From the UHGV virus genome UHGV-1706396: a stretch of DNA of 20,019 nucleotides; one strand, 5' to 3'. Below the pieces are notes generated by a model. That model did no database searches, had not been told where the DNA came from, and worked only from the letters and a program-made list of their open reading frames with translations. A program made the translations under genes and the position numbers. The stretch comes from a virus. Within the stretch, counting starts at the first letter, position 1. The number at the start of each line of letters is the position of its first letter. Of the stretch, positions 2,440 through 17,338 are shown one piece after another.

Positions 2440-2459
2440 ATAAGTATGTAGTAACTTAT
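2440..2459. promoter_or_regulatory. Operator-like palindrome ATAAGT-N8-ACTTAT (copy 1 of 3)
   Basis: gATAAGTatgtagtaACTTATt in the divergent intergenic region between grx (start 2371) and the AT-rich gene (start 2545). Confidence 0.35.
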
Positions 2460-2544
2460 TTATTGACTGGTAAACAATTGAAGTGATTATGACAATAGAT
2501 TACAGTAAGGATTGCCTTGAAATGTACATTTTATAGAGGTTTTA

Positions 2545-3453
2545 ATGATTGGTAAGTTGTCTGATTCTTTGATTGAAAATAAATACAACGAATTTAGAGA
2601 AGAAATATCTTTACTTTTTGACTATTTAAATCAGATAAATGATACAACAAAGAAAAATATAAAACGTCTTCTAAAAGAAGTGGAGTATGCACAGAATCCA
2701 GATACTATTATTAATATTAATGAAACTATTAAGATTAAGTGTGGCACAACGTTAGCTCGCCATTTATGTTCAAACCCATATACAGGTTCAACATTAGAGA
2801 TAGGTAACAGCGCCATTGATTTAGAAGAAAAGATAAGATTGTGTAATGTTTTGAAGAATAAACAATATCAGTGGGTTATTACTGAAGCCTATGAGTTACT
2901 GGAAGACTATATTGAGGCAATATATGTCTATACTGTATGTGTTCGAAATGATTTCTGGTCCTCAAGTAATTTTGGTAAGGTTGAAGATGATGACATTGGG
3001 AAAGGGGAAGTTTATTACAAATTATTAAAAGCAAAAAGTAACCCATCGAAAAAAATAATTAAAATTTTCAGAAATAAAATACCTGGCTTCAAAGAGATAG
3101 AAATAAACAACAAGATTGGTAAAAACTATCGCTTTAACATCAAGCTAATTGAACTACTAAGACATACAATAGTACACAATAGTGGACGATTCAATGATAC
3201 AGAAAAATTTATAAATAAGGTTTTAGATGAATCTGAAATAAACGGTAAGAAAAGAGTTATTGGAGAAAGAGCTGTTAGAAGTTACATTGCTAAAGTGCAA
3301 GAAGATGATATTGTAATGCTCTTAGAAAGACCATCTGAAATTTTTGGTTCTTTTGGTGGTTATTTTAACAGAGCAAAATTTTTACTAAGTGATATTTTAG
3401 AATACTCACTAATCATTAAAGAAGAACTAAAATCATATCTAGGCAATCATTAA
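2545..3453 (+). CDS. AT-rich accessory protein of unknown function with HEPN-like Rx4H motif; candidate abortive-infection / defence protein
   Basis: 302-aa ORF, markedly lower GC than its neighbours (K/N/I-rich); GAGG RBS 6 nt upstream; R206-H211 motif RHTIVH (nt 3160-3177) fits the HEPN Rx4-6H consensus with a polar residue after Arg; opposite strand to flanking genes; own terminator. Confidence 0.55.
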   Translation: MIGKLSDSLIENKYNEFREEISLLFDYLNQINDTTKKNIKRLLKEVEYAQNPDTIININETIKIKCGTTLARHLCSNPYTGSTLEIGNSAIDLEEKIRLCNVLKNKQYQWVITEAYELLEDYIEAIYVYTVCVRNDFWSSSNFGKVEDDDIGKGEVYYKLLKAKSNPSKKIIKIFRNKIPGFKEIEINNKIGKNYRFNIKLIELLRHTIVHNSGRFNDTEKFINKVLDESEINGKKRVIGERAVRSYIAKVQEDDIVMLLERPSEIFGSFGGYFNRAKFLLSDILEYSLIIKEELKSYLGNH

Positions 3454-3454
3454 C

Positions 3455-3486
3455 AAAAAAAGGGGCCGAAGCCCCTTTGAATTTTG
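3455..3486. terminator. Bidirectional rho-independent terminator between the AT-rich gene and the tRNA cluster
   Basis: Hairpin AGGGGC-cgaa-GCCCCT (3461-3476) followed by TTTGAATTTTG on the plus strand and by a 7-T run on the minus strand (the A-run at 3454-3460). Confidence 0.75.
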
Positions 3487-3552
3487 CGCTGAAAAAAGTG
3501 TTGCTAGGATGTTAGCAAGCTATGGTTAAGAACGTCTGCCGTAATTGTCTAT

Positions 3553-3630
3553 CACAGCGTTGAGCGGTCTGGTTTATGTTAGCGGAGTCTTAATCTGGGT
3601 GATTAAAAGGCCAAACCGCTCAACGCTGTG
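3553..3630. repeat. Long inverted repeat (20-bp arms, 19/20 complementary, 38-nt loop) immediately 3' of the tRNA cluster
   Basis: CACAGCGTTGAGCGGTCTGG at 3553-3572 and CCAAACCGCTCAACGCTGTG at 3611-3630; arm sequence related to the repeat at 4901-5022. Confidence 0.6.
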
Positions 3631-3632
3631 TC

Positions 3633-3719
3633 TGGCGGAGAGTAATGGAATCGAACCATCATCGCTTGCGCAATGGGACGGTTTTCAAGACCGCTTGAGC
3701 ACCATGCTCCCTACTCTCC
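3633..3719 (-). tRNA. tRNA-Ser (anticodon TGA), class II with long variable arm
   Basis: Hand fold of the minus strand: acceptor GGAGAGT/ACTCTCC, anticodon stem GCGGT/ACCGT with loop CTTGAAA, T-arm GATGG-TTCGATT-CCATT, encoded CCA. D-arm is atypical (short loop or 3-nt linker). Confidence 0.65.
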
Positions 3720-3905
3720 GGCCGTTGTGGTGGCCGGTACTGAATCTCCGGCATACGGTGCAGCCAATTAGGACTACGGACGATCACCGCTCGCGAAAGG
3801 GAAGGTTTGCGGCCGCATTTCCCTAACATCCAAGAAAGCTATCGCATCAGTCTGCGAATCCACCACAACGGAAAGAGCATTCACGTCTCGCGTGCCACCA
3901 CGAAT

Positions 3906-3929
3906 GGCAACTCAGAGAGTCGAACTCTG
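3906..3929 (-). other. tRNA-like 3' fragment (T-arm plus acceptor 3' strand) without a recognisable 5' half; pseudo-tRNA or possible att core
   Basis: Minus strand reads CAGAG-TTCGACT-CTCTG-AGTTGCC with conserved G53, T54 T55 C56, A58, C61, but no D-arm or anticodon arm could be folded upstream. Confidence 0.3.
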
Positions 3930-4387
3930 AAAATGCTCTTACCTGTTGTGTGCTGTGTCACTCCCTCCGCTATTACCTGGCTTTGCCTCGACCTTTTAGG
4001 TTGCGTCCGATGATAAACAGGGCTGTCGGAAATTTGTCTGTGACACAGCGATAAGAGAACTCGATGCATTTAAGCCAAGCCCCATATGGGAAGTTCTCTT
4101 ATCTGTTGTGCGCTCCGTTTCGTGGAGCTAACGGCGGGTGAACAGGCCGCACCAGGTTGGACATATTTCAGCGTTATGCTGTTGCAAGAGAGCCAAATTG
4201 TGATGGTCGGTGCTGAACTCCGACACAGGGTTGTAGCAAGCCCCGCAAAGCGCGCACTACTGTAGTTGCGGCACATCAGCCTGTGCATTCACCACAATGT
4301 TGAGAACACTGGTTGTCACGCTGCAACGCAACATTTATTCATAGATTGGGATATGACCCCGTTACGCCAATGTTCTCAATATTATGT

Positions 4388-4463
4388 TGGTGCCGGTTAA
4401 CGGACTTGAACCGCTGACCATTCGCTTACAAAGCGACTGCTCTACCAACTGAGCTAAACCGGC
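4388..4463 (-). tRNA. tRNA-Thr (anticodon TGT)
   Basis: 76 nt: acceptor GCCGGTT/AACCGGC, D-stem GCTC/GAGC, anticodon loop TTTGTAA (27-43 pair mismatched), T-arm AGCGG-TTCAAGT-CCGTT, encoded CCA. Confidence 0.8.
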
Positions 4464-4467
4464 AATT

Positions 4468-4554
4468 TGGTGGGGAGTGATGGAGTCGAACCACCCGAGT
4501 CGCAATGACAGTAGATTTACAGTCTACCCCGCTACCCCTACGGACTAACTCCCC
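4468..4554 (-). tRNA. tRNA-Tyr (anticodon GTA), long variable arm
   Basis: 87 nt: acceptor GGGGAGT/ACTCCCC, anticodon arm GTAGA-CTGTAAA-TCTAC, T-arm GGTGG-TTCGACT-CCATC, discriminator A, encoded CCA. Confidence 0.85.
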
Positions 4555-4559
4555 TAAAT

Positions 4560-4634
4560 TGGCGATGGTGGGTGGATTCGAACCACCGACCAGTTGGTTA
4601 ACAGCCAACTGCTCTACCGCTGAGCTACACCATC
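4560..4634 (-). tRNA. tRNA-Asn (anticodon GTT)
   Basis: 75 nt canonical cloverleaf: acceptor GATGGTG/CACCATC, D-stem GCTC/GAGC, anticodon arm GTTGG-CTGTTAA-CCAAC, T-arm GGTGG-TTCGAAT-CCACC, encoded CCA. Confidence 0.9.
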
Positions 4635-4825
4635 AATTCGGCACTGCCAGTATTTATTACTCAACAGTGCCAATCGCGACGGTTTAGTTTCTGCCAGGAA
4701 ACGCACCGCTACTTGCACTTTTCGTTAGTGCCAGACGCTTTCGACTTCGCTCAATAGTAGAAGGCAAACTCTTTAAGTAGATGATGTTTCTGAGGACAGC
4801 ACCTACTTTGTAATTTATACAATGT

Positions 4826-4842
4826 GATGTATGGAATCATTT
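4826..4842. promoter_or_regulatory. Recurrent motif GATGTATGGAATCATTT (copy upstream of the tRNA cluster)
   Basis: 17-mer identical to 5838-5854 and matching both arms of the 2012-2044 palindrome. Confidence 0.35.
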
Positions 4843-4900
4843 GTTGTGAAAACAGGCACCAATGGCAACAGTGGTTAAACCTACACAACTATTCTGTCTT

Positions 4901-5022
4901 CACAACGTTGAGGCCACTACTCCGATTGAATGTTTGCCCAACATGTTACATATCAACGCTCGCCGGTATCTCTGTGAATAGAACCTTAGAATTGATAAAA
5001 ATGTAATGGCCTCAACGTTGTG
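4901..5022. repeat. Perfect 15-bp inverted repeat pair separated by 92 nt, 5' of the tRNA cluster
   Basis: CACAACGTTGAGGCC at 4901-4915 and GGCCTCAACGTTGTG at 5008-5022; arm resembles that of the 3553-3630 repeat (CACARCGTTGAG). Confidence 0.6.
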
Positions 5023-5098
5023 TGCTGGCTAACCATACCAGCCGGGCTACGTCGCCGCTTTTTAACCCAGTATAAACGACATAATTGAACAAAATGAC

Positions 5099-5207
5099 GT
5101 AACAGAATGGGCGGTCAGTGGCTAAGAATCCGGGAGTCATATGGAGTTGAAAATATACCGACCGCCCATTCTGTTACTTCATCGGAGGGAACACTCATGT
5201 TCCCTCC
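5099..5207. repeat. Two adjacent strong hairpins in an ORF-poor region (18-bp perfect stem with 43-nt loop, then a GC-rich 10-bp stem with 4-nt loop)
   Basis: GTAACAGAATGGGCGGTC at 5099-5116 pairs with GACCGCCCATTCTGTTAC at 5160-5177; GGAGGGAACA-ctca-TGTTCCCTCC at 5184-5207. Confidence 0.55.
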
Positions 5208-5382
5208 TGCGTTCTGCAATCACACTCGCTCAGTGTGTCCCATTTCGGTAACGAGGCTGGAAACTGACCTCGCTGGTGTTTGGCTTATTAGGCTACTGCC
5301 AGATAGACTTCTTCGTTTGCACTTGTATTTAAGTTCAAACAGTCGCGTCTCAACGAAAACAAAGTCATCTTATACACAAAAG

Positions 5383-5402
5383 ATAAGTAAGTAAATACTT
5401 AT
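5383..5402. promoter_or_regulatory. Operator-like palindrome ATAAGT-N8-ACTTAT (copy 2 of 3; flanked to a perfect 7-bp inverted repeat)
   Basis: GATAAGT-aagtaaat-ACTTATC at 5382-5403, just 3' of the 5413-5703 gene. Confidence 0.35.
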
Positions 5403-5412
5403 CAATATGTTT

Positions 5413-5703
5413 TTATTCGGTTGTGACTTTTTTGATCAAGGCCACTCTAGGACTAGGTGTTCTTGTAATGGTGGCAGTGAATCGTTTCGCTTGGATAGTA
5501 ATGGTTTCGTTCTCCTTAAGTTGCCCGTAGCGAGTTTCCACCAGGGTGCCAAGACGCCACAGACCATCATCGATACGTTTATGACTAGCAAATTTAATCA
5601 GCAACAGTTTTACGACTAACTGACCTACGTAAAAGGCGAATGCGACTCCGGCCGCTAAGAAATAGGTGACCAACCACCAGTCCCAAGAAGTTAAATTGCT
5701 CAT
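5413..5703 (-). CDS. Small membrane protein (one N-terminal transmembrane helix), unknown function
   Basis: 96-aa ORF with hydrophobic segment WLVTYFLAAGVAFAFYVGQLVV; AAAGG RBS 8 nt upstream; preferred over the overlapping plus-strand ORF 5407-5619, which has no RBS. Confidence 0.45.
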   Translation of the reverse strand: MSNLTSWDWWLVTYFLAAGVAFAFYVGQLVVKLLLIKFASHKRIDDGLWRLGTLVETRYGQLKENETITIQAKRFTATITRTPSPRVALIKKVTTE

Positions 5704-5837
5704 TTTCTAACCTTTGTTTCATGAACTACCCGATACACACGCTTTCCGATGCACAGTGTTTTGGTTTTAAGTTCCTGCTTAATTAAATCACGACAGATGC
5801 CGAAGCCGATAAGGAAGCCACCCATAAAAGCTAATGA

Positions 5838-5854
5838 GATGTATGGAATCATTT
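5838..5854. promoter_or_regulatory. Recurrent motif GATGTATGGAATCATTT (third site)
   Basis: 17-mer identical to 4826-4842; about 135 bp upstream of the 5413-5703 gene start. Confidence 0.35.
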
Positions 5855-6064
5855 TAACACTCCTGATTCTACTAATTGCTGTAGCAATACTTTCCCTTTA
5901 TCAGTTAACTGGTAGTTGGCCGAACACTTCGTTTCAGAAACGTTTGCAACCAACCCTAACCGCTCTAACTTAGCCCGCGTTTTAGGCTTCCAGTACTCAG
6001 GGAACTCTGACCACTTACTGATTTCATGAAGCGTTTCCTTCTCCCGCTTACTTAATACGATCAT
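5849..6064 (-). CDS. Hypothetical small protein (71 aa)
   Basis: ORF with AAGGAG RBS about 8 nt upstream; start lies inside the 3' end of the preceding small ORF. Confidence 0.5.
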   Translation of the reverse strand: MIVLSKREKETLHEISKWSEFPEYWKPKTRAKLERLGLVANVSETKCSANYQLTDKGKVLLQQLVESGVLK

Positions 6065-6227
6065 CCTTAATCTCCTTCACTGTGTGGGTTATTTCTACAA
6101 TGCGATAAATACGACCGCGTCGTTCTATAACACCGCTTTTAATGTAGTCATTGATGCAACTGGACATCACCACAATACCGATTAAAAAACCAACCGCTAA
6201 AAATGCAATCATCCAGCCGAGCATCAT
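6048..6227 (-). CDS. Small membrane protein (59 aa), translationally coupled to the ligase gene; not in the ORF track
   Basis: ATG at complement of 6225-6227 overlaps the ligase TGA stop (AATGATG); GGAG RBS 8 nt upstream; translation MMLGWMIAFLAVGFLIGIVVMSSC... contains one TM helix; stop at 6048-6050. Confidence 0.45.
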   Translation of the reverse strand: MMLGWMIAFLAVGFLIGIVVMSSCINDYIKSGVIERRGRIYRIVEITHTVKEIKDDRIK

Positions 6228-7546
6228 TCTTTATCTCCGATTCGATCTTCTGTATCGCGTAAGCAACGCGGCCATTTCAGTCGTGGGTGGCGTAAGCTGC
6301 CATCCGGCGTTTTCTCGTGACAATGAACCTCGACAATACGACCACGGTACTTCTCTTTGTTGTTCCAGATCTCGTCCAGATATTTATGCTTAATGCCGCT
6401 TGCACGAACAATCACACCGTTTTCAAGTCGAATAACAATTTTTCCAAGCGTGTTGGCAAAACCAGAGTCCGGGTCGCCCGGCTCAAAGTCGATAATTTCA
6501 CCATCTTCTGAATCTTCGTCTTTTAACTTCCACCAGCTGCGGGTACGTTTAAACTCGTAAACAGAGTTCGGATCTTTGCCCATCTCCCCTTCTTCGTTAT
6601 CGTCCAGGCGTTTCATGAAGCGTTCGATGAAGTCTTCGTGGCTATGGATGATGTAGAACGGATGTAGGTGAATGTCTTGCGCGTAGTCTTCACTGCGATC
6701 GTTTTTGAACAACGCCACGAGAATAGCCAGGCGCTCTTTCAGCTTCATACCTGTCTTTGCATACTCTTTGGATTTAGCCTGTGCCCGCCATTCCGGTAGG
6801 AAGAAGTCGAAAACATGATAAATAGCGCCAATTGCCTGCACGTTCTTTTTGCGCAATGCAGATACGGACTGGTTAAATGAACCGGCTGTTCCTTCACCAT
6901 CGAAGAAGATGTGTTTGTGGCCTGAAAGTTTGCCTAATTCGAGCATGGCTGGCTTTAGGTGATCGAGAGACGTGATTGGATTACCAGTACGAGAAAGGAA
7001 GTTCACCTCTTCCTCGTCAACAATAACCTCGCAAATTACTCGCAAACCATCGAGCTTAAGGCTGCCAATCATCGGCCATTTTGCTTTAGGATTTGGCTTG
7101 AAGGGGTATTTGTCGCCTTTTTCTTTATACGGTGACGCCAGCTGCACCTCGAATTTCGGAATGGGATTTTCAAAAACCTTGTTGCATAGGCTAATCCCAA
7201 CGCCAGCTTTCGGATCTTTTAAGAGGAAACGACGGAACACGTCCTGCCCATCGGCGCACATTGACGCCACGATAGACTCAACAGCAGCTATTGCTGCGTT
7301 CCCCGTCAGCTCGCGAGAGGCCAGCTTATTCAGTATATCAATGGCTTTTTCGTCACTTGGGACGGACTCACTAAGCGGCTCTGCCACTTTGTATTTCTTT
7401 ACCCCAAAACGGATGAAAGGGTTGAGCATCAATGAAACCATGCTTTGCTCGAAGTCATCCATGTTGGCCAATGCCTCTTTTTTTGCATTGGTTCCCATAG
7501 TTTTCATTTCGTCCAGCTTATGCTTAAGTGCGATCAACTTTTTCAT
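6224..7546 (-). CDS. ATP-dependent DNA ligase
   Basis: 440-aa ORF with the adenylation motif K-x-D-G in SLKLDGLRV, characteristic of ATP-dependent ligases. Confidence 0.8.
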   Translation of the reverse strand: MKKLIALKHKLDEMKTMGTNAKKEALANMDDFEQSMVSLMLNPFIRFGVKKYKVAEPLSESVPSDEKAIDILNKLASRELTGNAAIAAVESIVASMCADGQDVFRRFLLKDPKAGVGISLCNKVFENPIPKFEVQLASPYKEKGDKYPFKPNPKAKWPMIGSLKLDGLRVICEVIVDEEEVNFLSRTGNPITSLDHLKPAMLELGKLSGHKHIFFDGEGTAGSFNQSVSALRKKNVQAIGAIYHVFDFFLPEWRAQAKSKEYAKTGMKLKERLAILVALFKNDRSEDYAQDIHLHPFYIIHSHEDFIERFMKRLDDNEEGEMGKDPNSVYEFKRTRSWWKLKDEDSEDGEIIDFEPGDPDSGFANTLGKIVIRLENGVIVRASGIKHKYLDEIWNNKEKYRGRIVEVHCHEKTPDGSLRHPRLKWPRCLRDTEDRIGDKE

Positions 7547-8025
7547 TGTTGTTTTGCCTCCATATGTTGATCGATTTGCTCATGTGTTTCTTTTGTTGTT
7601 TCTTCAAGCAACGCCGCATACACGTCAGTGATCGCTGTTTGTGATGTGGTGCTCTTCTTAACCATGCTATTAATCGTTACACTGTCACGTTTTCGTTTTA
7701 TAGTTCTGGCTTGTTTATTCCGTTCTTCAACCTCCTTAATGAGCGCGGTCATATCTTCGAAATACAGAGATTCTCCTTTACGAATCTCTTCAACCATCAT
7801 TTTTAACGCCTTGCATTTGCCTGCTTTGATAGCGGTTGCGCACGACTGGAATGAAGTTCGAGGAAGACGGTTTTCTTTGAAGGCAAGAATGGTGTGCTGG
7901 CAAACGGAGTAGCTGCAATATGCCGACTCACCGTTTATCTTTACTTCCTCACAACGAAGTGAATAACCATTATTTCCTGAAATAGAGGGGATTTTTGACA
8001 AATCAGCTTTCACAACTACCGCCAT
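7543..8025 (-). CDS. Hypothetical protein, Cys-rich N-terminal region (possible zinc-binding)
   Basis: 160-aa ORF with ATG start; stop overlaps the ligase start (ATGA); cysteines in CEEVKINGESAYCSYSVCQH; no SD, but the GTACTTACCTATC motif lies 10 nt upstream. Confidence 0.5.
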   Translation of the reverse strand: MAVVVKADLSKIPSISGNNGYSLRCEEVKINGESAYCSYSVCQHTILAFKENRLPRTSFQSCATAIKAGKCKALKMMVEEIRKGESLYFEDMTALIKEVEERNKQARTIKRKRDSVTINSMVKKSTTSQTAITDVYAALLEETTKETHEQIDQHMEAKQQ

Positions 8026-8034
8026 AAATAATCT

Positions 8035-8048
8035 TGTACTTACCTATC
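8035..8048. promoter_or_regulatory. Recurrent 14-mer TGTACTTACCTATC (identical copy at 17093-17106; near-copy at 12347-12359)
   Basis: Exact 14-mer duplicated 9 kb apart, each upstream of a minus-strand gene start. Confidence 0.35.
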
Positions 8049-8080
8049 GTTATTTGCGTAAAAAACGACGCGCGGAGAGA

Positions 8081-8863
8081 TTACCAACTTCCCCAGCTAA
8101 CCATCTTGCGCTGATTGCTTTCTAAGCGATAGGGGACAAGAAGCTCTGTGACATGATTGGTGGCGTATGATTTAGCCTCTTGCTCTATCATCGGTAATTC
8201 GTTAGCAATCCTGACCATCTTCCCAGCAAATTCCGCCATTACGCCATCACATGCCTTCCCAGCATCAATAACGATATGCACCAGATCCAACTGGCTTTTG
8301 CACATGTCGCAAAGAGACGCATACTCACTCTCTCTGATTACATTTACGGCATCATTAGCCCCTTTATTAAGCAAGACTTCCAACAGGTTTGTCGGGGTAA
8401 CAAAATCGGCTTTAAGTGACAATGTTCTCTCACCTTTTATCGACCGTAAGTACTCTTCGTAGTTTTGCTTGTCTTCCAGCAAAACTAAGCTATGCATAGT
8501 TAGAAGTGATTCCTGAATAGCCTCTTCAATAATACTGTCGTTTGGCGCACAAAAAACGGTATTTGTGTAGATCACTTTTCCATCCATCCATGCACCAACC
8601 TGCACTTTAAGACTGAGCGGGTTTTCTTTGCTAATAAAAACAACTAATGCAGAACGCCGTGCACAAGAAGGTTCACCCCATACGTGTAACTCAACCTTCA
8701 GATAAGGTAGCCCTGGTAGCGGGATCTCAACCAAACGAGTGGCGATATGATCCATTGCCGTTTTTACCGCTTTTTCAATGATGTCTAGTCGATTGCTCTC
8801 GCTGATTTCTAAACCAGTTTTATCAATGATGTCGCAGGCTAATTTCTGAATTTCGTCTTTCAT
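8081..8863 (-). CDS. Hypothetical protein (260 aa)
   Basis: Long ORF with ATG start and AGGAG RBS 7 nt upstream; no recognisable motifs. Confidence 0.55.
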   Translation of the reverse strand: MKDEIQKLACDIIDKTGLEISESNRLDIIEKAVKTAMDHIATRLVEIPLPGLPYLKVELHVWGEPSCARRSALVVFISKENPLSLKVQVGAWMDGKVIYTNTVFCAPNDSIIEEAIQESLLTMHSLVLLEDKQNYEEYLRSIKGERTLSLKADFVTPTNLLEVLLNKGANDAVNVIRESEYASLCDMCKSQLDLVHIVIDAGKACDGVMAEFAGKMVRIANELPMIEQEAKSYATNHVTELLVPYRLESNQRKMVSWGSW

Positions 8864-8904
8864 ACCAACTCCTAGCTAACAGATGAAAGTATTCTTACAG
8901 AAAG

Positions 8905-8924
8905 ATAAGTAATCATCTACTTAT
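8905..8924. promoter_or_regulatory. Operator-like palindrome ATAAGT-N8-ACTTAT (copy 3 of 3)
   Basis: gATAAGT-aatcatct-ACTTATt, about 40 bp upstream of the 8081-8863 gene start and just 3' of the primase stop. Confidence 0.35.
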
Positions 8925-8938
8925 TTTAGCGGCACTTG

Positions 8939-10203: not shown

Positions 10204-11542
10204 AGGTAACGTCTAAGATCCGCTCAATGAAGCGCATTTGTTCGAGGTTTTGTTTAACACGAATGCTGATCCCTCCCTGCTGGTTACGCGAACCAGCAAA
10301 GTAGAGACGAGCCTCTCCTTTCGCTTCTTCTTCTTCGGTTTTGTTGATCGTTATTACCAGGTCAGCAATACGTACTTTTTCGATGTTGTCGGCGGCGTGC
10401 ATCATTGTGGCAACTTCTGACGCGCCACCTTCACGGTTTGTCTGCGATGCCGTGATTCCAGCAACGTTATGTTTGTCATAAAGAGCACGTAAATCGGTGT
10501 AGATACTACGAATGTTGGCGCGATCATCACGAAGGTCATAACTGGCACGCATCAAATCTGCGTAGTCGACAACAAGCATGTCAGGCACCATGCCATTGGC
10601 TTTCATACTGTTAAGCATACGGTCCAGATCTGCCGGTGACATACTTCCTGACGGACGCTCAACAACCCACAAACTACCAATCCCCTTAGTGGCTCCCAAC
10701 TCTGCCAACTTACGATGAACTTCATCGCGCCGTTCCACCAGCTTGGACATTTCCGTCTCCGACAATCTTGCATCAAAGCGGTCGGACAAAATGTTGGTGT
10801 GAACCTCCAGCGAGAGATACAGAACATTGTAGCCAGCAAGCGTTGCGTTTATGGAAAACTCACCCATTGCGGTCGATTTACCGGATTTAGCGAACCCCAT
10901 GAAGAGCACCATTTCGCGCTTTGCCCAGCCTTTTTGGTACAGCAACCTATCGAGAAGAGGGAGTCCTGTTGTAATACTGTTTGGTACATACTCCTCTGAA
11001 GCCTCATATTCACGCGCTTTCAATCGCTCACTTGCGGAGGTGTAGTAGTCATAGATTCCGGTCGCTTCGTTCGATCCAATCTGCTGAACCTTGGCCATGA
11101 TTGCCATCGCCCCCTGAAAGTCGCCTTTCTCTTTCAGTTCAGCAGCCTTAATCAGAGCATCATCAAACGCTACGCTTTTTGCGAAGGTTGATACCTGGTC
11201 AACCATGTACGAGGTATCGGACAATTTTTCTGCAAGGATGCGCTTAAACGCAGCAACAACATCGGCGAATAGTTCCTCACGGATAGTCTTATCGCGTTTC
11301 GCACGCTTAAGCATATCCAGAATTGCAGATGAAGAGGGCGCGCTCTTGTACATACGGTAATAGCCCGAAACCATATTAACCAATATGGCATTGGCCGCAT
11401 TGGCAAATTGGCTAGGTACAACAAGATCTCCCGCACGAGTAAGAAACTCGTGATCACGACAAAAATAGGCCGTCAATCTGTTCTGAAAATCTTCATCAAA
11501 CTCTTCGGACAGCCCGCGTCCTGTATGGCAAAGTTCTGTCAT
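10202..11542 (-). CDS. Replicative DNA helicase (DnaB / T7 gp4 helicase-like)
   Basis: 446-aa ORF with Walker A GFAKSGKST in the C-terminal half; adjacent to the primase gene. Confidence 0.8.
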   Translation of the reverse strand: MTELCHTGRGLSEEFDEDFQNRLTAYFCRDHEFLTRAGDLVVPSQFANAANAILVNMVSGYYRMYKSAPSSSAILDMLKRAKRDKTIREELFADVVAAFKRILAEKLSDTSYMVDQVSTFAKSVAFDDALIKAAELKEKGDFQGAMAIMAKVQQIGSNEATGIYDYYTSASERLKAREYEASEEYVPNSITTGLPLLDRLLYQKGWAKREMVLFMGFAKSGKSTAMGEFSINATLAGYNVLYLSLEVHTNILSDRFDARLSETEMSKLVERRDEVHRKLAELGATKGIGSLWVVERPSGSMSPADLDRMLNSMKANGMVPDMLVVDYADLMRASYDLRDDRANIRSIYTDLRALYDKHNVAGITASQTNREGGASEVATMMHAADNIEKVRIADLVITINKTEEEEAKGEARLYFAGSRNQQGGISIRVKQNLEQMRFIERILDVT

Positions 11543-11585
11543 GTGCTTTCCTTTGTTTTTTAAACAAATTGTTTTCTAGTATTAG

Positions 11586-12326
11586 TTAATTAGATAGGGG
11601 ATCAATAAACCGCCGTGCTTCTTCCAGTTCTTCTGGAAAGTGGGCGGAAATAAGGCGCTCTGGAACTATTTCCATTAGCCAGATAGCGGAGAAAATTGCG
11701 CGTATGCGCTTGCTGCGGGGGATGGTGCGTAAACGCTCCAGAATCCACTCAAAATAGCTTTCCTGGATCGGGTTGAACTGCATGTCTCCCATATGCTTAA
11801 AACTAACCAGAGAGTCATCCAGACGGGTTGTTGCGCGTCTGGCTAATTTCTCTTCAAATATCTCAATCAGTTCTGGCTGCCACAAATGCTGTGGGCGAGG
11901 CAGCTTGTCCCACAGACGTCGTGCAGCTGCGGAAAGCACGGTGGAGATAAAGTAGTCGTATGAGCAGCAATAGCGGTCAGCAAACTGGCGTGCTTTCCAT
12001 AGCGACGTTTTATTGGCAGTCGACAACTCCTGATAAGGCAGGCGTTTTAACCCGGTGGTGAACGGAGCTGTTTCAAAGTGTTCACGACCGTGCGTCAGCA
12101 TGATATTTGAGTACTGACGTTTGTATGCCTCCGTAAACAGACAGGTGGCCATAAGAGGATGCATGTCGCGGTAATCAAACCACTTCGTATCGAAGAGTTC
12201 AGCCTCGTCTTTGCAGCGCGACAAACCAATGTTTTCAGCAACCCACTTATCCATAACAGCGGTATTCCACTCTGTCATGAAGTCGTACTGGTCGTTGTCG
12301 ATGGTGTCGAAAAAGATTTGGCTCAT
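11586..12326 (-). CDS. Hypothetical protein next to the helicase (function unknown; a helicase-loader or initiator role is only speculation)
   Basis: Track ORF begins at a GTG (12335); the ATG at 12326 has an AGGTGA RBS about 7 nt upstream and is preferred. No conserved motifs recognised. Confidence 0.5.
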   Translation of the reverse strand: MSQIFFDTIDNDQYDFMTEWNTAVMDKWVAENIGLSRCKDEAELFDTKWFDYRDMHPLMATCLFTEAYKRQYSNIMLTHGREHFETAPFTTGLKRLPYQELSTANKTSLWKARQFADRYCCSYDYFISTVLSAAARRLWDKLPRPQHLWQPELIEIFEEKLARRATTRLDDSLVSFKHMGDMQFNPIQESYFEWILERLRTIPRSKRIRAIFSAIWLMEIVPERLISAHFPEELEEARRFIDPLSN

Positions 12327-12442
12327 GTGGCTCACCTGGTAGGTAGTTACTTACTTATCACAATGAGCGGATGATAGCGACTGGTGGCAGTTTTTGGAAG
12401 TGGAAACGGAAGGGAGTTGTTCTGGTGGTGTCTTTTAAAAGA

Positions 12443-12497
12443 CCTGCTTCCGTATATATTTAATAAGTTACTTATTATTTATATATACAGAAGCAGG
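12443..12497. repeat. Large AT-rich near-palindrome (about 55 bp) in a divergent intergenic region
   Basis: CCTGCTTCCGTATATAT...ATATATACAGAAGCAGG with central palindrome AATAAGT-T-ACTTATT (12462-12476); arms match apart from one substitution and small indels. Confidence 0.6.
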
Positions 12498-12608
12498 CAT
12501 AACTTGTCGTCTTAGACGCCCAGAAGCTCTACACTTTGAGCCTGTTAAATTGATTAAAAACTTATGTGTAAAATAGAACGCATTAGTCAGTAGCTAAGAG
12601 ATGCAATA

Positions 12609-13376
12609 ATGGACGATTTATCGGTATACGCGAGATCATTGGATAAGGCTAAATACTATGTTTACTGTCTCTATGATACAGAAGACAAGATGAAAAGACC
12701 GTTTTACATAGGAAAAGGCAAATCGACTCGTTGTCTCGATCACATCAAGTATCCCGATGACTCTCCCAAATCCATGCGGATCAAAGAACTTTTGGCTAAT
12801 AAAAAATTAGGCATAGATATTCTTCGTCATGGTATGGATGAAACCACAGCCAAACTTGTTGAGGCGACATGCATCGACCTTATGGGGGTCGGAGAGCTTA
12901 CGAATAAGGTACGAGGAAGTGGTTCCATGATGGGCAGAATATCACTGGACGCCTACCATCACTTAGTGCTGCAAGAGGAAACTGAAATTGCTCCTGAGCA
13001 CGCCGGTCTTGCCTTCCTGCTAAACAGCACCTACAAGTCAGGAATGTCCGCTCTGGCATTATATGAAGCTACGCGTGGCGTATGGGCAAAGGTTCCAAGA
13101 GACGAGAATCTCAAATATGCCTACGCTACATATGGTGGGCTGATAATGGAAGTTTATCAGATTGAATGCTGGGTCAAAGCCGGTTCTCAGCAGTACTTTA
13201 CAAGGGATATAGCTCTTGGCCCCGACACAAAACGTTATGAATTTGTTGGCAGAATAGCCGATGAGCATATTAGAAAACTGTATGTAGGCAAATTAATCAA
13301 GAAGCCACCAAGCTACGGTAGCCCTTTTGTGAAGGTTGGGGTGGTTAGGACTGAACATAGTGTTAGCGCGGCATAA
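12609..13376 (+). CDS. GIY-YIG nuclease-domain protein with uncharacterised C-terminal domain (homing-endonuclease-like or defence nuclease)
   Basis: N-terminal YYVYCLYD...PFYIGKGKSTRCLDH matches the GIY-YIG core pattern (compare UvrC VY..YD..YIGKAK..R); lone plus-strand gene with its own terminator. Confidence 0.55.
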   Translation: MDDLSVYARSLDKAKYYVYCLYDTEDKMKRPFYIGKGKSTRCLDHIKYPDDSPKSMRIKELLANKKLGIDILRHGMDETTAKLVEATCIDLMGVGELTNKVRGSGSMMGRISLDAYHHLVLQEETEIAPEHAGLAFLLNSTYKSGMSALALYEATRGVWAKVPRDENLKYAYATYGGLIMEVYQIECWVKAGSQQYFTRDIALGPDTKRYEFVGRIADEHIRKLYVGKLIKKPPSYGSPFVKVGVVRTEHSVSAA

Positions 13377-13392
13377 AGCTGACATTGTACTT

Positions 13393-13430
13393 ATGCATTG
13401 GCGCGTACATTGCGCCAATGCATAATTTTT
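13393..13430 (+). terminator. Rho-independent terminator after the GIY-YIG gene
   Basis: 12-bp perfect stem ATGCATTGGCGC / GCGCCAATGCAT with 7-nt loop, followed by AATTTTT. Confidence 0.7.
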
Positions 13431-13788
13431 AACCTTTCTTCATCAACTCTCGTTTGATTTCATCGGTACGCATCGTGACATCGGCAGCTGTGATCGCCTC
13501 GTTAAGTTTCACGATGTCCTCGATTTCCTGCGGTGACTTCTCTGCCAGATGGAAAATGGCTGCTCGAATCACGTCTGAACGAGTGAACTTCTCGAAGCGA
13601 GGGATGAACTTCATCATCTCCAGCAGTTCGAAGTATTCGTCCTCCAGTGACATTGTGCGGCTTTTAATTTTCTCTTTGCCACGAGTCGGGCGTCCCTGTG
13701 GTCTGAGTGGTTGGCGCAAAGGAGTTGTATTCTTAGCCGGTTCATCAGTCTCTTTGCGCTTTGCTAGGTCACCCATTTTCATGGACAT
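13429..13788 (-). CDS. Small partition protein, ribbon-helix-helix type (ParG/ParB-like centromere-binding protein)
   Basis: 119-aa ORF coupled to parA (TAATG overlap); basic disordered N-terminus then RHH-like segment KSRTMSLEDEYFELLEMM...SDVIRAAIFHL. Confidence 0.5.
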   Translation of the reverse strand: MSMKMGDLAKRKETDEPAKNTTPLRQPLRPQGRPTRGKEKIKSRTMSLEDEYFELLEMMKFIPRFEKFTRSDVIRAAIFHLAEKSPQEIEDIVKLNEAITAADVTMRTDEIKRELMKKG

Positions 13789-14456
13789 TATTCTTCTTCC
13801 TCCAGACTCAACAGATAATCTACAAATTCTTCAAACTCGGCTTCCGCTTTTTTGTCGCGCTCGCTACCGATCATTTCAAAGATAGAACGACCAGACTCTT
13901 CCGCATCATCGTAGACGTTGCGGTTATATAGATTGACTGGCGCAGACTCGATGCCAAACGTCTCAACAATCTCTTTAGCCGCCAGAATGCGAGACACTTG
14001 TGATGGCAAAGCCGGGCACTGGTTCATGACAGCGCGGACCTTCACTTTATCGTTTACATTACGAACATTGTCGATAATAGGATCGATGTCACGCAGAGAT
14101 TTCAAATCACGACGCTTAGGGCGAAGCGGGATAATGATAACGTCGGCCATCAGCATCGCTTGTCGCTGAATTTCGGAGTCAAAGCCACCAGCATCTACCA
14201 CTACAAACTCAGCTCTACCCTGAAGCGATTTTAGGTGCTTAATGATGTCATCCTGAACGTATGCAAAAGGTATCAGCTCAAGGTCTTCGTTCTGTCGACG
14301 GTCTTCACACCAGCTTGTTGTCGTGCGCTGAATATCTATATCAGTGATATAAACCTTCTTCTTCTTTTTGATTTTCAGGCAAACGGCAATTTGCTGGGCA
14401 ACGGTGGATTTGCCAGGCCCGCCCTTTGTGCCGCCAACCACAAAGATCTTGGTCAT
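13788..14456 (-). CDS. parA: ParA/ParF-family partition ATPase (type Ib)
   Basis: 222-aa ORF with deviant Walker A near the N-terminus (GGTKGGPGKST); followed by a small coupled gene. Confidence 0.8.
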   Translation of the reverse strand: MTKIFVVGGTKGGPGKSTVAQQIAVCLKIKKKKKVYITDIDIQRTTTSWCEDRRQNEDLELIPFAYVQDDIIKHLKSLQGRAEFVVVDAGGFDSEIQRQAMLMADVIIIPLRPKRRDLKSLRDIDPIIDNVRNVNDKVKVRAVMNQCPALPSQVSRILAAKEIVETFGIESAPVNLYNRNVYDDAEESGRSIFEMIGSERDKKAEAEFEEFVDYLLSLEEEE

Positions 14457-14679
14457 TGGAGAGTTCCCTTTGCGTCTATTATTATCGTCTGAAACAACTT
14501 GTTTTCTTATATGTGATATAGCCTAAATGCCTACGGCTACGGTGTAAAGGTTAAATGGTAGGTTGTGGTTAACAATTGGCAATCATTGCTTGTATTTGCC
14601 TGTTGAAAAAAGTAACAATGACCTCTATATTACAAGTACGGTGATATGCCGTACACAATTTGATAATGCACACGTAATG

Positions 14680-14689
14680 GGCTATAGCC
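14680..14689. promoter_or_regulatory. Palindrome GGCTATAGCC overlapping a candidate -10 of the toxin-antitoxin promoter (possible autoregulatory operator)
   Basis: TTGATA (14660-14665), 17-nt spacer, TATAGC (14683-14688); nearby GTACGG-N7-CCGTAC inverted repeat at 14636-14654. Confidence 0.3.
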
Positions 14690-14774
14690 TTTTAAAGTAA
14701 TTTTTGAGTCGAAAACTCAGTTTGAACAGAGGAGATTGATGGCCTTCCTACATCACGGCCATCAGGAGGAATAC

Positions 14775-15044
14775 ATGTCAGCACTAAAAAAGCAGCGCAT
14801 CGATTTGAGATTAACCGATGACGATAAAAGCATCATCGAGGAAGCTGCCGCAATGTCTAACCAGAGCATTACTCAGTTTATGGTTAGCAGTGCATCTGAA
14901 CGTGCCGTGAAAGTTATAGAGCAACACCGTAGACTAGTTCTGAATGAAGAATCCTGGAATCTGGTTATGGACGCTTTAAGCAATCCTCCGGCACCGAACG
15001 ACAAGCTGAAACGAGCTGCTGATCGTCTGAAAAGCATGGAGTAG
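14775..15044 (+). CDS. DUF1778-type antitoxin (TacA/AtaR-like) of a GNAT toxin-antitoxin pair
   Basis: Small ORF immediately upstream of the GNAT toxin gene. Start placed at the ATG at 14775, which has an AGGAGG RBS 5 nt upstream, rather than the TTG at 14736. Confidence 0.75.
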   Translation: MSALKKQRIDLRLTDDDKSIIEEAAAMSNQSITQFMVSSASERAVKVIEQHRRLVLNEESWNLVMDALSNPPAPNDKLKRAADRLKSME

Positions 15045-15051
15045 TTTACTC

Positions 15052-15573
15052 GTGGATAATATAAAGATAGAAATTTTCTCTGGAGAGAAAGATTATGATT
15101 TGAATGGTTTTGATTGCGGTGAAGAATCACTAAATGCCTTTTTAACCAACCACTTAAAAAGGCAGCATGAGGGAAAAATTCTTCGCGCTTATATGCTTTG
15201 CACTAAAGAAGACAGACCAAAAGTGTTAGGGTATTACACTTTGTCAGGCAGCTGCTTTGAAAAGGAGTCCTTACCTTCAAGAAGCCAGCAAAAGAAGGTA
15301 CCTTATCGGAATGTTCCAAGTGTTACTTTGGGCAGACTGGCTTTGGACAAATCTCTTCAAGGTCAAGGATTTGGCTCAATGCTTGTAACACACGCTATGC
15401 GTGTTGTGTATAATGCCTCTCTTGCTGTTGGTATTCATGGACTCTTCGTTGAGGCGTTGAATGATAAAGCTAAGGCGTTTTATAAAAGTCTGGGCTTTAT
15501 CCAGTTGATTGGAAACAACGAGCGATCTTTGTTCTATCCAACAAAATCTATCGAAAAATTGTTCGAAGAATAA
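15052..15573 (+). CDS. GNAT-family acetyltransferase toxin (TacT/AtaT-like)
   Basis: 173-aa ORF with GTG start 7 nt after the antitoxin stop; GNAT core VTLGRLALDKSLQGQGFGSMLV; closely resembles my recollection of E. coli AtaT (not verified). Confidence 0.8.
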   Translation: MDNIKIEIFSGEKDYDLNGFDCGEESLNAFLTNHLKRQHEGKILRAYMLCTKEDRPKVLGYYTLSGSCFEKESLPSRSQQKKVPYRNVPSVTLGRLALDKSLQGQGFGSMLVTHAMRVVYNASLAVGIHGLFVEALNDKAKAFYKSLGFIQLIGNNERSLFYPTKSIEKLFEE

Positions 15574-15604
15574 TGTACTCCCCTCAAATGAGGGGAACTT
15601 CGCA

Positions 15605-15820
15605 TCACCAACCGCAAACTCTCTCTCCCATCGTATTGTGAAAAAGGATTTGGCGTTCGGTTTCTTCGGTCATTACATCATTATTGCTGATATAGATAGG
15701 CTCAGCTCCATCGCAGAACAATACGCTGGCGGTTTGTGGTTTAATGACGCACCCACTTATCATACAACTCACGATGAACGGCAGAAGCATCTTTCTGACG
15801 TATTTTATTGCTCGTCTCAT
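15605..15820 (-). CDS. Putative o-spanin (Rz1-like outer-membrane lipoprotein), overlapping the i-spanin 3' end
   Basis: 71-aa ORF with basic n-region, hydrophobic core and lipobox ISGC; overlaps the i-spanin gene in another frame. Confidence 0.45.
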   Translation of the reverse strand: MRRAIKYVRKMLLPFIVSCMISGCVIKPQTASVLFCDGAEPIYISNNDVMTEETERQILFHNTMGERVCGW

Positions 15821-15992
15821 TCACCACTTCCACTGTGCTTTGAAGTCGTTTCCTGTCTTCCTGTTTTGCCTTCTCTTCTATTGCTCGTCGCGCCGCATTT
15901 CCGCCCATCGTGTAAGCGCCGACCAGAACGAAAAGAACGGCAGCCAGCGTAATCAAAGCAACTTTTAGCTTTGTCATCAGGCTGCCTAGCAT
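15741..15992 (-). CDS. Putative i-spanin (Rz-like)
   Basis: 83-aa ORF: N-terminal TM helix LKVALITLAAVLFVLVGAY then a charged periplasmic segment; directly downstream of the endolysin candidate. Confidence 0.5.
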   Translation of the reverse strand: MLGSLMTKLKVALITLAAVLFVLVGAYTMGGNAARRAIEEKAKQEDRKRLQSTVEVVNETSNKIRQKDASAVHRELYDKWVRH

Positions 15993-15993
15993 A

Positions 15994-16713
15994 TTAGACC
16001 ATCCCTTTCTGGTGTCGTCTTACCTGCGACCAGGCAATGAATCCGGCCACAACAATAGTGGCAATGCCGAAGATGATGCGTACTGTATCCCCGCTAGAGA
16101 TATGACCTTGTGCCTTATCCATAGCAGCGGAAACCTGCGGCATAACATCGGCCAGCTGCGCCAGACCAATACCTGCTGTAACAGTTGCGCCTGCAGTTTC
16201 TTTAGTTACAGGAACAGCCTTGACGGTTTTCACCGGCTTAACGACGCCAGCCCGACGCAGACCTTCCTCAATAACTTCTGCCGCATACCAGGTGTTCAGC
16301 GTTTTAAGCGGACCTCGGCCATTCTCGTGGCGAATGATTGCCTCAACCAAAGGTCGAAGGATGTCGTAATCATGCAGATCGATAAGCATGTCTGCGGTTA
16401 CACCAACGGCTTTAGACACCTCATTAATGTAGGCGTCAGTGTTGTTTTCATTCGGCGGTGCCCAACGTTCAATAACTTCACGAATGGTATCGATACTTGA
16501 GCCGTCTTTTGCGCGACGTTTGTCGTGGTAGGTAATTAGAGTCACCGCCAGCGCACGAATCCCCCAAACAGGGTCTTTAAACGTGCAAAAGCGCGGTTCG
16601 TCTGGATTCGCAACCAGACCTTGCCACGGTGATCCTTTATCAAGATTACCGGGGTTATTATTACGAATGCCTCTCGGAGTCTTCATCCTTGATCTCCTGT
16701 TATTGCAGTCCAT
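15994..16713 (-). CDS. Putative endolysin / cell-wall hydrolase with C-terminal hydrophobic segment
   Basis: 239-aa ORF between the holin-like and spanin genes; N-terminal GIRNNNPGNL motif; C-terminal hydrophobic stretch IIFGIATIVVAGFIAW. The enzymatic family was not identified. Confidence 0.45.
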   Translation of the reverse strand: MDCNNRRSRMKTPRGIRNNNPGNLDKGSPWQGLVANPDEPRFCTFKDPVWGIRALAVTLITYHDKRRAKDGSSIDTIREVIERWAPPNENNTDAYINEVSKAVGVTADMLIDLHDYDILRPLVEAIIRHENGRGPLKTLNTWYAAEVIEEGLRRAGVVKPVKTVKAVPVTKETAGATVTAGIGLAQLADVMPQVSAAMDKAQGHISSGDTVRIIFGIATIVVAGFIAWSQVRRHQKGMV

Positions 16714-17023
16714 TTTTTACGCCATACGCGGCTAACCCCAAAAGCAGTGCAGTAATAATGAACGACGTTATTTTAGAAACAATGCCGCCAAAGAACCCAC
16801 TGGAGATGGAATCTAACCGGTTAAGGAGTTTGTCCAGATTGGAGTGTTGAATACTATGTTGCGCCGGGGTCATATCACCAAAGTAGGTTTTCAGCTGATC
16901 ATTGACCTCCTGGCCAATTTCTTCACGTAGCTCTTTACCTAATTTGCCAACAACCTCCCGAGCAACGATCGCGGCAATACGCTCAACTTGCTCTGTTGTA
17001 ACGCCCGCCATCTCGTTCGACAT
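16700..17023 (-). CDS. Holin-like tail-anchored membrane protein
   Basis: Acidic soluble N-terminus and a single C-terminal TM (ITSFIITALLLGLAAYGV). Preferred start is the second ATG (17023) with a GGAGG RBS; the track start at 17035 lacks an RBS. Overlaps the endolysin start by 14 nt. Confidence 0.4.
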   Translation of the reverse strand: MSNEMAGVTTEQVERIAAIVAREVVGKLGKELREEIGQEVNDQLKTYFGDMTPAQHSIQHSNLDKLLNRLDSISSGFFGGIVSKITSFIITALLLGLAAYGVKNGLQ

Positions 17024-17104
17024 GTTTTCCTCCATGAAAAGTCAAATCGGGATGGCGGATTTATATCACATTTCACCCTTTTGTTGTAGGTGTGTACTTA
17101 CCTA

Positions 17105-17338
17105 TCATTCAGCATTGCAACGGACTGATGAGAAAGCACCTACTCCTACCCATCGCCAGTTATAGATGCTACCCGCTTTGTATAAGGTATAGTCGTTCAC
17201 TTTTTTAACAGCATATATGGGTATGACTGTCTCCTGTCCACCAATGATAGCCTCACCATAACATATAGGTGTCGGCAATTTCTGGCAGCCAGTAAGAGAG
17301 AGAACAACAGCTATTGTTAGAAATAATCTTTTCATCAT
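17105..17338 (-). CDS. Small lipoprotein, candidate superinfection-exclusion protein (Cor/Llp-like)
   Basis: 77-aa ORF; signal peptide MMKRLFLTIAVVLSLTGC with lipobox LTGC; sits between the tail-fibre genes and the lysis cassette, the typical Cor/Llp position. Confidence 0.55.
   Translation of the reverse strand: MMKRLFLTIAVVLSLTGCQKLPTPICYGEAIIGGQETVIPIYAVKKVNDYTLYKAGSIYNWRWVGVGAFSSVRCNAE

Follow-up and report, generated by a model that had tools for sequence, protein, structure and literature searches.

The 20,019-nt stretch of DNA analysed here (UHGV virus genome UHGV-1706396, hereafter the window) is part of an SSU5-like element, a phage-plasmid of E. coli. Its identity is 97% to Escherichia phage CMS-2020a, 96.6% to phage Cyrano and about 81% to Salmonella phage SSU5. 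Cyrano is pLF82, which E. coli LF82 carries as a phage-plasmid of this SSU5-like type, and the window genes were named by transfer from the Cyrano annotation. The minus strand is the gene strand for most of them. Seven copies of an imperfect 22-bp palindrome with the consensus GATARGTAAGTACTTACYTATC were found in the window, and we examined their distribution, their conservation among related elements and the protein that may bind them.

The weakest copy, TATCGGTAAGCACTTACCAGAG (380-401; 15 of 22 consensus positions), had escaped the sequence-only reading of this DNA. It contains a core palindrome at 384-397 (GGTAAGCACTTACC) and overlaps the predicted transcription start of the promoter of a gene for a predicted XRE-family helix-turn-helix (HTH) protein. 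The site GATAAGTATGTAGTAACTTATT (2439-2460; 18/22) lies between the divergent glutaredoxin gene (minus strand, 2371 to 2126) and a 302-aa open reading frame (ORF) starting at 2545, where it overlaps the -35 (TTATCA, 2443 to 2438) of a minus-strand promoter-like site and abuts the TTGACT (2463-2468) of a plus-strand one. The best copy in the window, GATAAGTAAGTAAATACTTATC (5382-5403; 20/22), is located 10 nt after the stop of a 96-aa gene (5413) and upstream of a non-coding and tRNA region on the minus strand, with orthologues in Cyrano (38251), SSU5 (41772) and the Klebsiella phage pJN2-26 (83365). The site at 8027-8048, reading GATAGGTAAGTACAAGATTATT on the minus strand (17/22), has a perfect left arm and a degenerate right arm; it ends 2 nt before the ATG (8025) of a 160-aa gene without a Shine-Dalgarno sequence and has orthologues in Cyrano (35606) and pJN2-26 (80737). 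Between the stop of the primase gene (8939) and a 260-aa gene (ATG 8863) lies GATAAGTAATCATCTACTTATT (8904-8925; 17/22), followed after 4 nt by a conserved extended -10-like element, TGTAAGAAT (8899 to 8891, minus strand), and in a five-genome alignment the palindrome and the TGTAAGAAT block were kept while the flanks diverged. The copy reading GATAAGTAAGTAACTACCTACC on the minus strand (12338-12359; 19/22) directly abuts the Shine-Dalgarno sequence and ATG (12326) of a 246-aa gene that heads the helicase-primase operon, and was found at the orthologous position in Cyrano (31295), SSU5 (33599) and pJN2-26 (74982). Finally, a copy reading GATAGGTAAGTACACACCTACA on the minus strand (17085-17106; 18/22) overlaps the stop codon of a 77-aa gene 49 nt upstream of the holin ATG (17035), with a conserved extended -10-like element, TGATATAAA (17068 to 17060), 17 nt downstream of it; here too the palindrome was kept and the flanks diverged, in an alignment of four genomes.

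The sequence-only reading had described these copies as two motifs. The first, ATAAGT-N8-ACTTAT, occurs exactly three times, at the positions it gave (2440-2459, 5383-5402 and 8905-8924), and did not occur in 100 dinucleotide-preserving shuffles. The second, a supposedly separate direct motif TGTACTTACCTATC, is present exactly at 8035-8048 and 17093-17106 with a near-copy at 12346-12359, and a further near-copy was found at 5382-5395 on the minus strand, but these copies proved to be the left arm of the same 22-bp palindrome. On the minus strand they read GATAGGTAAGTACA or GATAAGTAAGTAAC, their left arm is the same as that of the palindrome at 5382 (GATAAGTAAGTAAA), and their right arms are degenerate (17106 to 17085, for example, reads ATAGGT-N8-ACCTAC). 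Because all six of these sites fit GATARGTAAGTACTTACYTATC at 17-20 of 22 positions, they form one motif family and not two. Six 22-mers of the window scored at least 17/22, compared to 0.01 expected. All seven sites are non-coding, in a window of which approximately 17% is non-coding (P ~4e-6). The statement that two of the downstream genes lack a clear Shine-Dalgarno sequence was correct for the 160-aa gene only, as AGGTGAG precedes the ATG at 12326 (246-aa gene) and the holin and 260-aa genes have GGAGG and AGGAG, respectively.

Related genomes were scanned by scoring 22-mers against the 22-bp consensus at a cut-off of at least 16/22, with the expectation taken from shuffles (Markov, Cyrano). 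The complete Cyrano genome gave 25 such 22-mer windows, corresponding to 22 distinct sites, compared to approximately 1.0 expected; SSU5 gave 27 (0.5 expected) and pJN2-26 gave 28 (0.2 expected), including a perfect 22/22 copy of the consensus. Enrichment of the family over shuffles ranged from 25-fold to more than 100-fold. In Cyrano, 21 of the 22 distinct sites were intergenic in a genome that is 87% coding (P ~6e-18), and 27 of the 81 intergenic gaps contained a copy at a score of at least 15/22. Sites with the same consensus occupied orthologous gaps in Cyrano, SSU5 and pJN2-26, elements of E. coli, Salmonella and Klebsiella, respectively, whose genomes are 76-81% identical. Among the structural and lysis genes of Cyrano, sites preceded the genes for the major tail protein, the tail fibre and the holin, followed that for the major capsid protein, and were also located in the terminase-portal gap and in gaps separating tail genes. 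Among those of replication and nucleotide metabolism, they preceded the replication operons, the gp32-like single-stranded DNA-binding protein (SSB) gene, sbcD, nrdA, thyX and a methylase gene. One site was also located in the divergent UvsW/ParB promoter region, and few sites were found at 85-105 kb, where small accessory and plasmid-maintenance genes lie. Exact 20-mers were detected in IMG/VR in SSU5-like contigs only, a result that is uninformative on other phage families. By these comparisons the motif is a genome-wide set of approximately 25 sites conserved across the SSU5 supergroup.

Variants of the motif were found in more distant elements. An Acinetobacter type-1 phage-plasmid contained 31 windows (approximately 28 sites) of ATCAGTCAGTACTGACTGAT, compared to 0.5 expected, and this variant retains the architecture but has C in place of A at two positions of each half-site (C-type). 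The C-type was also present in a Cupriavidus element (61% GC) and a Pararhizobium element, while a second Acinetobacter type carried TATTAGTAAGCACTTACTAATA (T-type) and a K. quasipneumoniae element carried the A-type. The two Acinetobacter phage-plasmids thus carry different variants, and Acinetobacter, Cupriavidus and Pararhizobium have the C-type in common. The variant follows the element and not the host, and the binder is therefore encoded by the element. The motif family is old.

The candidate binder is the predicted XRE-family HTH protein of 128 aa encoded at 429-815 on the plus strand, which is 98% identical to CYRAN_45 of Cyrano, annotated as a 'putative repressor'. Pfam matches to HTH_19, HTH_37 and HTH_3 were obtained at E-values of 0.0015-0.035, and a PDB sequence search detected no relative. 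The AlphaFold2 model of the protein (pLDDT 73.5) consists of a five-helix XRE core and three C-terminal helices, with a predicted recognition helix at residues 41-47 (NNLSLIK). Foldseek matched this model to C.BclI, C.AhdI, HigA, Stl and the 434 repressor (E ~1e-2, target-normalised TM-score of at most 0.8), and the best structural matches are dimeric operator-binding proteins. The gene has a good sigma-70 promoter, TTTACA (355-360) and TAATAT (377-382) with a 16-nt spacer, and the site at 380-401 directly follows its -10 and covers the predicted transcription start, a position that makes it a putative autoregulatory operator.

A site was found at the same place beside the HTH gene in Cyrano (42602), pHCM2 (L055:6952), the Klebsiella element pJN2-26 (90498) and locus L057 (9953). 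At least one site was located upstream of the XRE-HTH gene in eight of the nine lineages examined (the window at 380, pHCM2, pJN2-26, K. quasipneumoniae, L057, Acinetobacter types 1 and 2, and Cupriavidus), with one to three sites in this upstream region in both Acinetobacter types, Cupriavidus and K. quasipneumoniae. In the ninth lineage, Pararhizobium, a site lies directly downstream of the gene. Homologues of the HTH protein were encoded on 996 plasmids, nearly always beside the integrase gene, with identities of 98-100% in E. coli, 66% in Salmonella, Citrobacter and Enterobacter, 64% in Y. pestis, 57% in Klebsiella and 38-48% in Acinetobacter. Few Cyrano genes are transcribed in the lysogen, and the HTH gene is one of them, at 10-fold above background (PMC9928086). 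At residue 45, within the predicted recognition helix, the A-type (three lineages) has Leu, the C-type (three lineages) has Met and the T-type lineage has Phe, a pattern that cuts across overall sequence similarity. A one-residue recognition code (Leu/Met/Phe at position 45) held in seven lineages and was rejected on the eighth, a prospective case with a modified A-type motif. Co-variation of helix and motif is suggestive, in that both change, yet they follow no simple code.

Other element-encoded proteins were considered as binders and rejected. The 70-aa gene divergent from the HTH gene encodes an acidic protein and is also deleted in SSU5. The FljA-like CYRAN_114 was rejected because no site lies upstream of its own gene and because the motif behaves like duplex DNA, and the ParB-like CYRAN_119 and CYRAN_120 were rejected as only a ParB_N domain and no HTH domain was detected in either. 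An element-encoded sigma factor is present in the Acinetobacter, Cupriavidus and Pararhizobium relatives and was undetectable in the motif-bearing Cyrano, SSU5 and pJN2-26. Where present, in the phage-plasmids of both Acinetobacter types, Cupriavidus and Pararhizobium, this sigma-70-family factor is encoded beside a MoxR/CobS-like ATPase (L053:1004-1669; L056:24542-25177; Acinetobacter type-1 plasmid, 19412-20080; L054, approximately 15239-15673). CYRAN_114 itself (Cyrano 100780-101301, annotated as 'transcriptional regulator') is a full-length member of the FljA family (PF03614; E 1e-80) with a faint Hfq/LSM similarity, and its gene is probably a moron, an accessory gene whose product silences the flagellin of the host; FljA-type proteins have been reported to prevent translation of fliC mRNA (PMC2652032). 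Hfq-annotated genes were observed next to the helicase gene in the Acinetobacter and Cupriavidus relatives.

In the SSU5 phage genome, a search for the HTH protein found no homologue. Compared to pHCM2, with which its flanks are 95.5-97% identical, SSU5 lacks approximately 7.5 kb (SSU5 42642-42673 compared to pHCM2 locus L055:6505-14041) containing the XRE-HTH gene, the integrase gene, grx, a gp49-family gene and phoH, and it keeps all of the sites. This deletion is a likely explanation of the lytic behaviour of SSU5; the lytic mycobacteriophage D29 has likewise been described as derived by deletion from a temperate parent (PMC5712189). With its gene absent from SSU5, the HTH protein, if it is the binder, is not needed for lytic growth, in line with a role as repressor and not as activator.

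We propose, at a probability of about 0.5, that the sites are dispersed operators and roadblock sites of a plasmid-prophage repressor, most probably the XRE-HTH protein at 429-815. The protein would bind the 22-bp palindromes as a symmetric dimer or higher oligomer, with each half-site made up of a tandem NAGT-NAGT, at approximately 25 sites in the short spaces that separate lytic genes, including early genes of replication and nucleotide metabolism as well as late structural and lysis genes. At a site over a promoter, as for the 260-aa, glutaredoxin and holin genes, the bound protein would occlude RNA polymerase, and at a site inside an operon it would block the elongating polymerase. Such roadblocks may insulate the lytic genes from read-through begun at the constitutive plasmid promoters and those of accessory (moron) genes, while negative autoregulation would come from the weak site positioned where transcription of the regulator gene starts.

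Several observations weigh against this proposal. The Pfam HTH matches of the 429-815 protein were all below the gathering score, and the lineages compared were chosen via HTH homology, so that the co-occurrence of HTH gene and motif is partly built in. The prospective test of residue 45 was borne out only in part, with the Phe-bearing E. coli lineage (P0032, locus L057) having a modified A-type motif (ATAWGTAAAT half-sites) and not the T-type. The sites of SSU5 have not decayed and may serve a function needed in lytic growth. The conserved extended -10-like elements after some sites place the palindrome centre near -31 or -42, a placement that would also suit an activator; a palindrome overlapping or abutting the -35 region at these sites fits occlusion and, by itself, also activation. 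Finally, the genes transcribed in the Cyrano lysogen are mostly without sites, but an activator model predicts likewise.

In such a model the lytic promoters would be activator-dependent, with a phage-encoded factor on the palindrome recruiting host RNA polymerase to promoters with a -10 only, as at the Lpa late promoters of P1 (-10 and a 9-bp inverted repeat) or the MotA middle promoters of T4. The sequence-only reading had suggested that the direct copies could be promoter elements. No -35 is conserved next to the sites, the conserved TGTAAGAAT and TGATATAAA follow two of the window sites, and the downstream edge (in gene direction) of the Acinetobacter type-1 sites often runs into TATACT, TATTAT, TACAAT or TATAAT. 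The sites also mark lytic genes and are kept in the lytic phage SSU5, and P1 offers a precedent for promoters of this kind (PMC10695390). A TANNNT, often TATCAT, was found at motif positions 19-24 of 44 of 73 sites, but also on the reverse strand of 38 of the 73, and with nearly equal frequency on both strands it is part of an extended palindrome and not a directional signal. Alignment of the flanks of 25, 73 and 104 sites, together with weight-matrix scans for -35 and -10, revealed no positional peak indicating a fixed promoter architecture, the best offset being common to at most 14 of 104 sites, and the distance from the site to the conserved -10 varies (approximately -31 compared to -42). 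For seven of the 22 Cyrano sites the next start codon follows after 1-17 nt, and the site abuts its ribosome-binding site (as at 12338-12359 and 8027-8048 in the window); with a promoter in such a place, the Shine-Dalgarno sequence would fall upstream of the transcript start. Four Cyrano sites lie upstream of terminator-like hairpins and others sit within operons, as at the terminase-portal junction, where the site overlaps the upstream stop codon. Because of these sites 1-17 nt before start codons or upstream of terminators a promoter-only role is ruled out, and their positions fit a roadblock. The suggestion of promoter elements was thus not supported, as the direct copies belong to the one palindrome family, the motif has no -35/-10 at a fixed distance and at several sites of the family a promoter cannot work. 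The sites were also not confined to late operons with room for a transcript start, in the manner of Lpa, as one element covers early and late genes alike, including those of replication and nucleotide metabolism, and the sigma-like factor of the Acinetobacter-type relatives is absent from the SSU5 group while the motif is present in both. We regard activation, the main rival to the repressor reading, as unlikely.

Binding by a structural or segregation protein is a further reading, with the sites acting as centromere-like or ParB-type sites (as in phage N15, or as for KorB of plasmid RK2) or organizing packaging or recombination. In favour of this reading, more than 20 palindromic copies are distributed over the replicon, and both Cyrano (105106) and the Acinetobacter element (75794) have one of them in the divergent promoter region that precedes the two conserved ParB_N genes. 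Both ParB-like proteins, however, contain ParB_N only with no recognisable HTH, and segregation would not call for sites placed, as these are, at gene boundaries and outside coding sequence. The sites are also sparse in the plasmid-maintenance and accessory regions (Cyrano 85-105 kb), and their constant partner is the promoter of the HTH gene, making this reading quite improbable.

A role at the RNA level, as an intercistronic mRNA hairpin for processing, stability or translational control with an FljA-like or Hfq-like protein as a possible binder, was weighed against the substitution pattern of the sites. Sites do occur just after stop codons and beside ribosome-binding sites, perfect copies could form a 9-bp stem, and Cyrano encodes an FljA-family protein. 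Across 73 sites both arms were conserved, but at the 11 mirrored position pairs the Watson-Crick counts equalled the expectation under independence, with no arm-to-arm covariation and no compensatory substitutions of the kind seen in a structured RNA hairpin. At pair 5/18 (R/Y), for example, G-C was observed 16 times, A-T 18, G-T 13 and A-C 16, so that A-C mismatches were as common as independence predicts. At many sites one arm is too degraded to pair and the arms decay independently, and among the window sites the better-kept arm is upstream in three and downstream in three, with no orientation bias. An Rfam search matched no family, and sites are also present in divergent promoter regions. 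The absence of compensatory covariation argues for duplex DNA read by a symmetric protein and not for an RNA hairpin, which we consider very improbable. The suggestion of the earlier reading that the palindromic form points to a dimeric DNA-binding protein is supported by the imperfect 22-bp palindromes, by this lack of covariation and by the tracking of the variant with the phage-plasmid lineage. A selfish or neutral repeat, such as a REP-like element or miniature transposon, or a chance similarity, would account for short, AT-rich, palindromic and intergenic copies, but is effectively refuted by their conservation at orthologous positions in genomes 76-81% identical. The co-ordinated base changes in distant relatives, the exact 20-mers restricted to SSU5-like contigs in IMG/VR and the enrichment over shuffles also speak against it, and repeats spread by transposition would be expected at variable, non-orthologous positions.

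Of the systems already described, the repressor of mycobacteriophage L5 with its operators and stoperators is the closest. In L5 (cluster A), the operators and 'stoperators' bound by gp71 are proposed to block initiation and elongation and so silence the prophage (PMC9283540). As in L5, more than 20 copies of one short site (22-28 in Cyrano, SSU5 and pJN2-26) are distributed genome-wide at promoters and in the short gaps of early and late operons, and a lytic deletion relative without the repressor is known (D29; PMC5712189), in parallel to SSU5. The L5 sites, however, are 13 bp, asymmetric, bound by a monomer and in one orientation, whereas the present sites are 22-bp palindromes without orientation bias. 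The candidate binder here is also an unrelated XRE-type protein in a plasmid-prophage of Proteobacteria hosts, with a putative function. As asymmetry, single orientation and monomer binding are lacking, the present system would be a variant of the L5 type and not a member of it.

In phage P1 one primary repressor, C1, controls the early genes, and the Lpa inverted repeat is found at 11 late promoters (PMC10695390). P1 resembles the present elements as a plasmid-prophage of enterobacteria of about 100 kb with many transcription units and with dispersed operators for C1. The C1 operators are 17 bp and asymmetric. P1 differs in having separate early and late systems where one motif serves both here, and in the fixed distance of the Lpa element from the -10, which was not seen here. 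Among XRE/Cro-CI regulators (434 repressor, R-M controller C-proteins, HigA, SaPI Stl) the predicted fold finds its match, as do palindromic operators with one at the regulator's own promoter, an arrangement that the window has at 380-401. The known regulators act at one to few operators and the present sites number approximately 25 over 100 kb; the site here is also longer, with 22 bp and tandem NAGT repeats making up either half, and no PDB sequence relative was detected for the protein. The phages T1 and Stevie contain 22-bp intergenic repeats that their authors compared with L5 stoperators (PMC4319613). These are likewise 22 bp, in 16-20 copies, predominantly intergenic and in an enterobacterial siphovirus, but they are asymmetric, in one direction, of a different sequence (VWATAGCAYKWWTTGYTAAAAV) and in strictly lytic phages. 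A literature search on the motif and on lysogeny control in SSU5-like elements (SSU5, pHCM2; repressor, operator, promoter) found no description of either.

The remainder of the window contains the integrase gene (810-1913, minus strand) next to the HTH gene, the glutaredoxin gene (2126-2371, minus strand), four tRNA genes (3633-4634, minus strand) and one minus-strand run made up of the genes for DNA ligase, the 160-aa protein, the 260-aa protein, primase, helicase and the 246-aa protein. The Cyrano annotation further identified a ParA gene, a toxin-antitoxin pair, a lysis cassette (holin gene at 16700-17035) and the start of the tail fibre gene. The Klebsiella orthologue of the 160-aa gene has 9 extra nucleotides, including AGAGAA, ahead of its ATG, and in each of the three genomes a 59-aa gene (Cyrano 59420) starts right where its site ends. 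Two plus-strand ORFs are not found at these places in Cyrano and look like inserted accessory (moron) genes. One encodes 255 aa (12609-13376) with a LEM-3-like GIY-YIG nuclease domain (E 5.5e-7), and the other, the 302-aa ORF (2545-3453), lies in a segment of 35% GC and has no Pfam match. Between the GIY-YIG ORF and the helicase operon lies a 52-bp AT-rich, near-perfect palindrome (12446-12497), CTGCTTCCGTATATATTTAATAAGT-T-ACTTATTATTTATATATACAGAAGCAG, with the centre ATAAGT-T-ACTTAT. Its Cyrano equivalent is at approximately 31,160-31,215 with a second, similar one at approximately 78,085-78,140. The palindrome may serve as an origin, as a bidirectional terminator or as a special kind of operator.

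Four long stem-loops were observed in and around the tRNA cluster (3553-3630, 4290-4389, 4901-5022 and 5094-5182), three of which have common arms, CACANCGTTGAG...CTCAACGNTGTG, of 20-26 nt that are 83-95% complementary; an Rfam search gave no match at the gathering score. An asymmetric repeat without relation to the 22-bp palindrome family, ATGTATGGAATCATT(T), is present in three copies (2009-2026 as the reverse complement, 4827-4844 and 5833-5854) with pairwise identities of 18/18 to 21/22. In the tail fibre gene (18833-19894), direct repeats with a 120-nt periodicity were found, including four 300-nt copies at 65-74% identity and 21-nt GTAGCAGCATTACC... units, and this region is approximately 80% similar to the S tail fibre gene of phage P1.

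Extended to the whole superfamily (SSU5, pHCM2, pKpn, pMT1 and Acinetobacter-type elements of Alpha-, Beta- and Gammaproteobacteria), the repressor reading would amount to an ancient silencing system. One small XRE repressor would act on approximately 25 palindromic NAGT-NAGT operators, at promoters and, within operons, as symmetric roadblocks independent of orientation, with A-, C- and T-type operators co-evolving with the recognition helix and defining immunity groups. This extension is tentative and the odds are somewhat against it. If true, it would be the first stoperator-like system outside the actinobacteriophages, differing mechanistically from L5 in the use of a dimer on a palindrome. 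SSU5-like elements are the largest known set of related enterobacterial phage-plasmids (PMC7969092). Plasmid pHCM2 of S. Typhi belongs to this set, as do relatives of pMT1 from Y. pestis, and antibiotic-resistance genes have been reported on phage-plasmids (PMC9600943). An operator consensus and a candidate repressor make the lysis-lysogeny switch of these elements, the immunity groups predicted from the motif and the lytic behaviour of SSU5 open to test. If the sites within operons block elongation, the stoperator principle would extend to Gram-negative hosts with a symmetric site, and the repressor and its operator would provide a compact, portable pair for synthetic biology.

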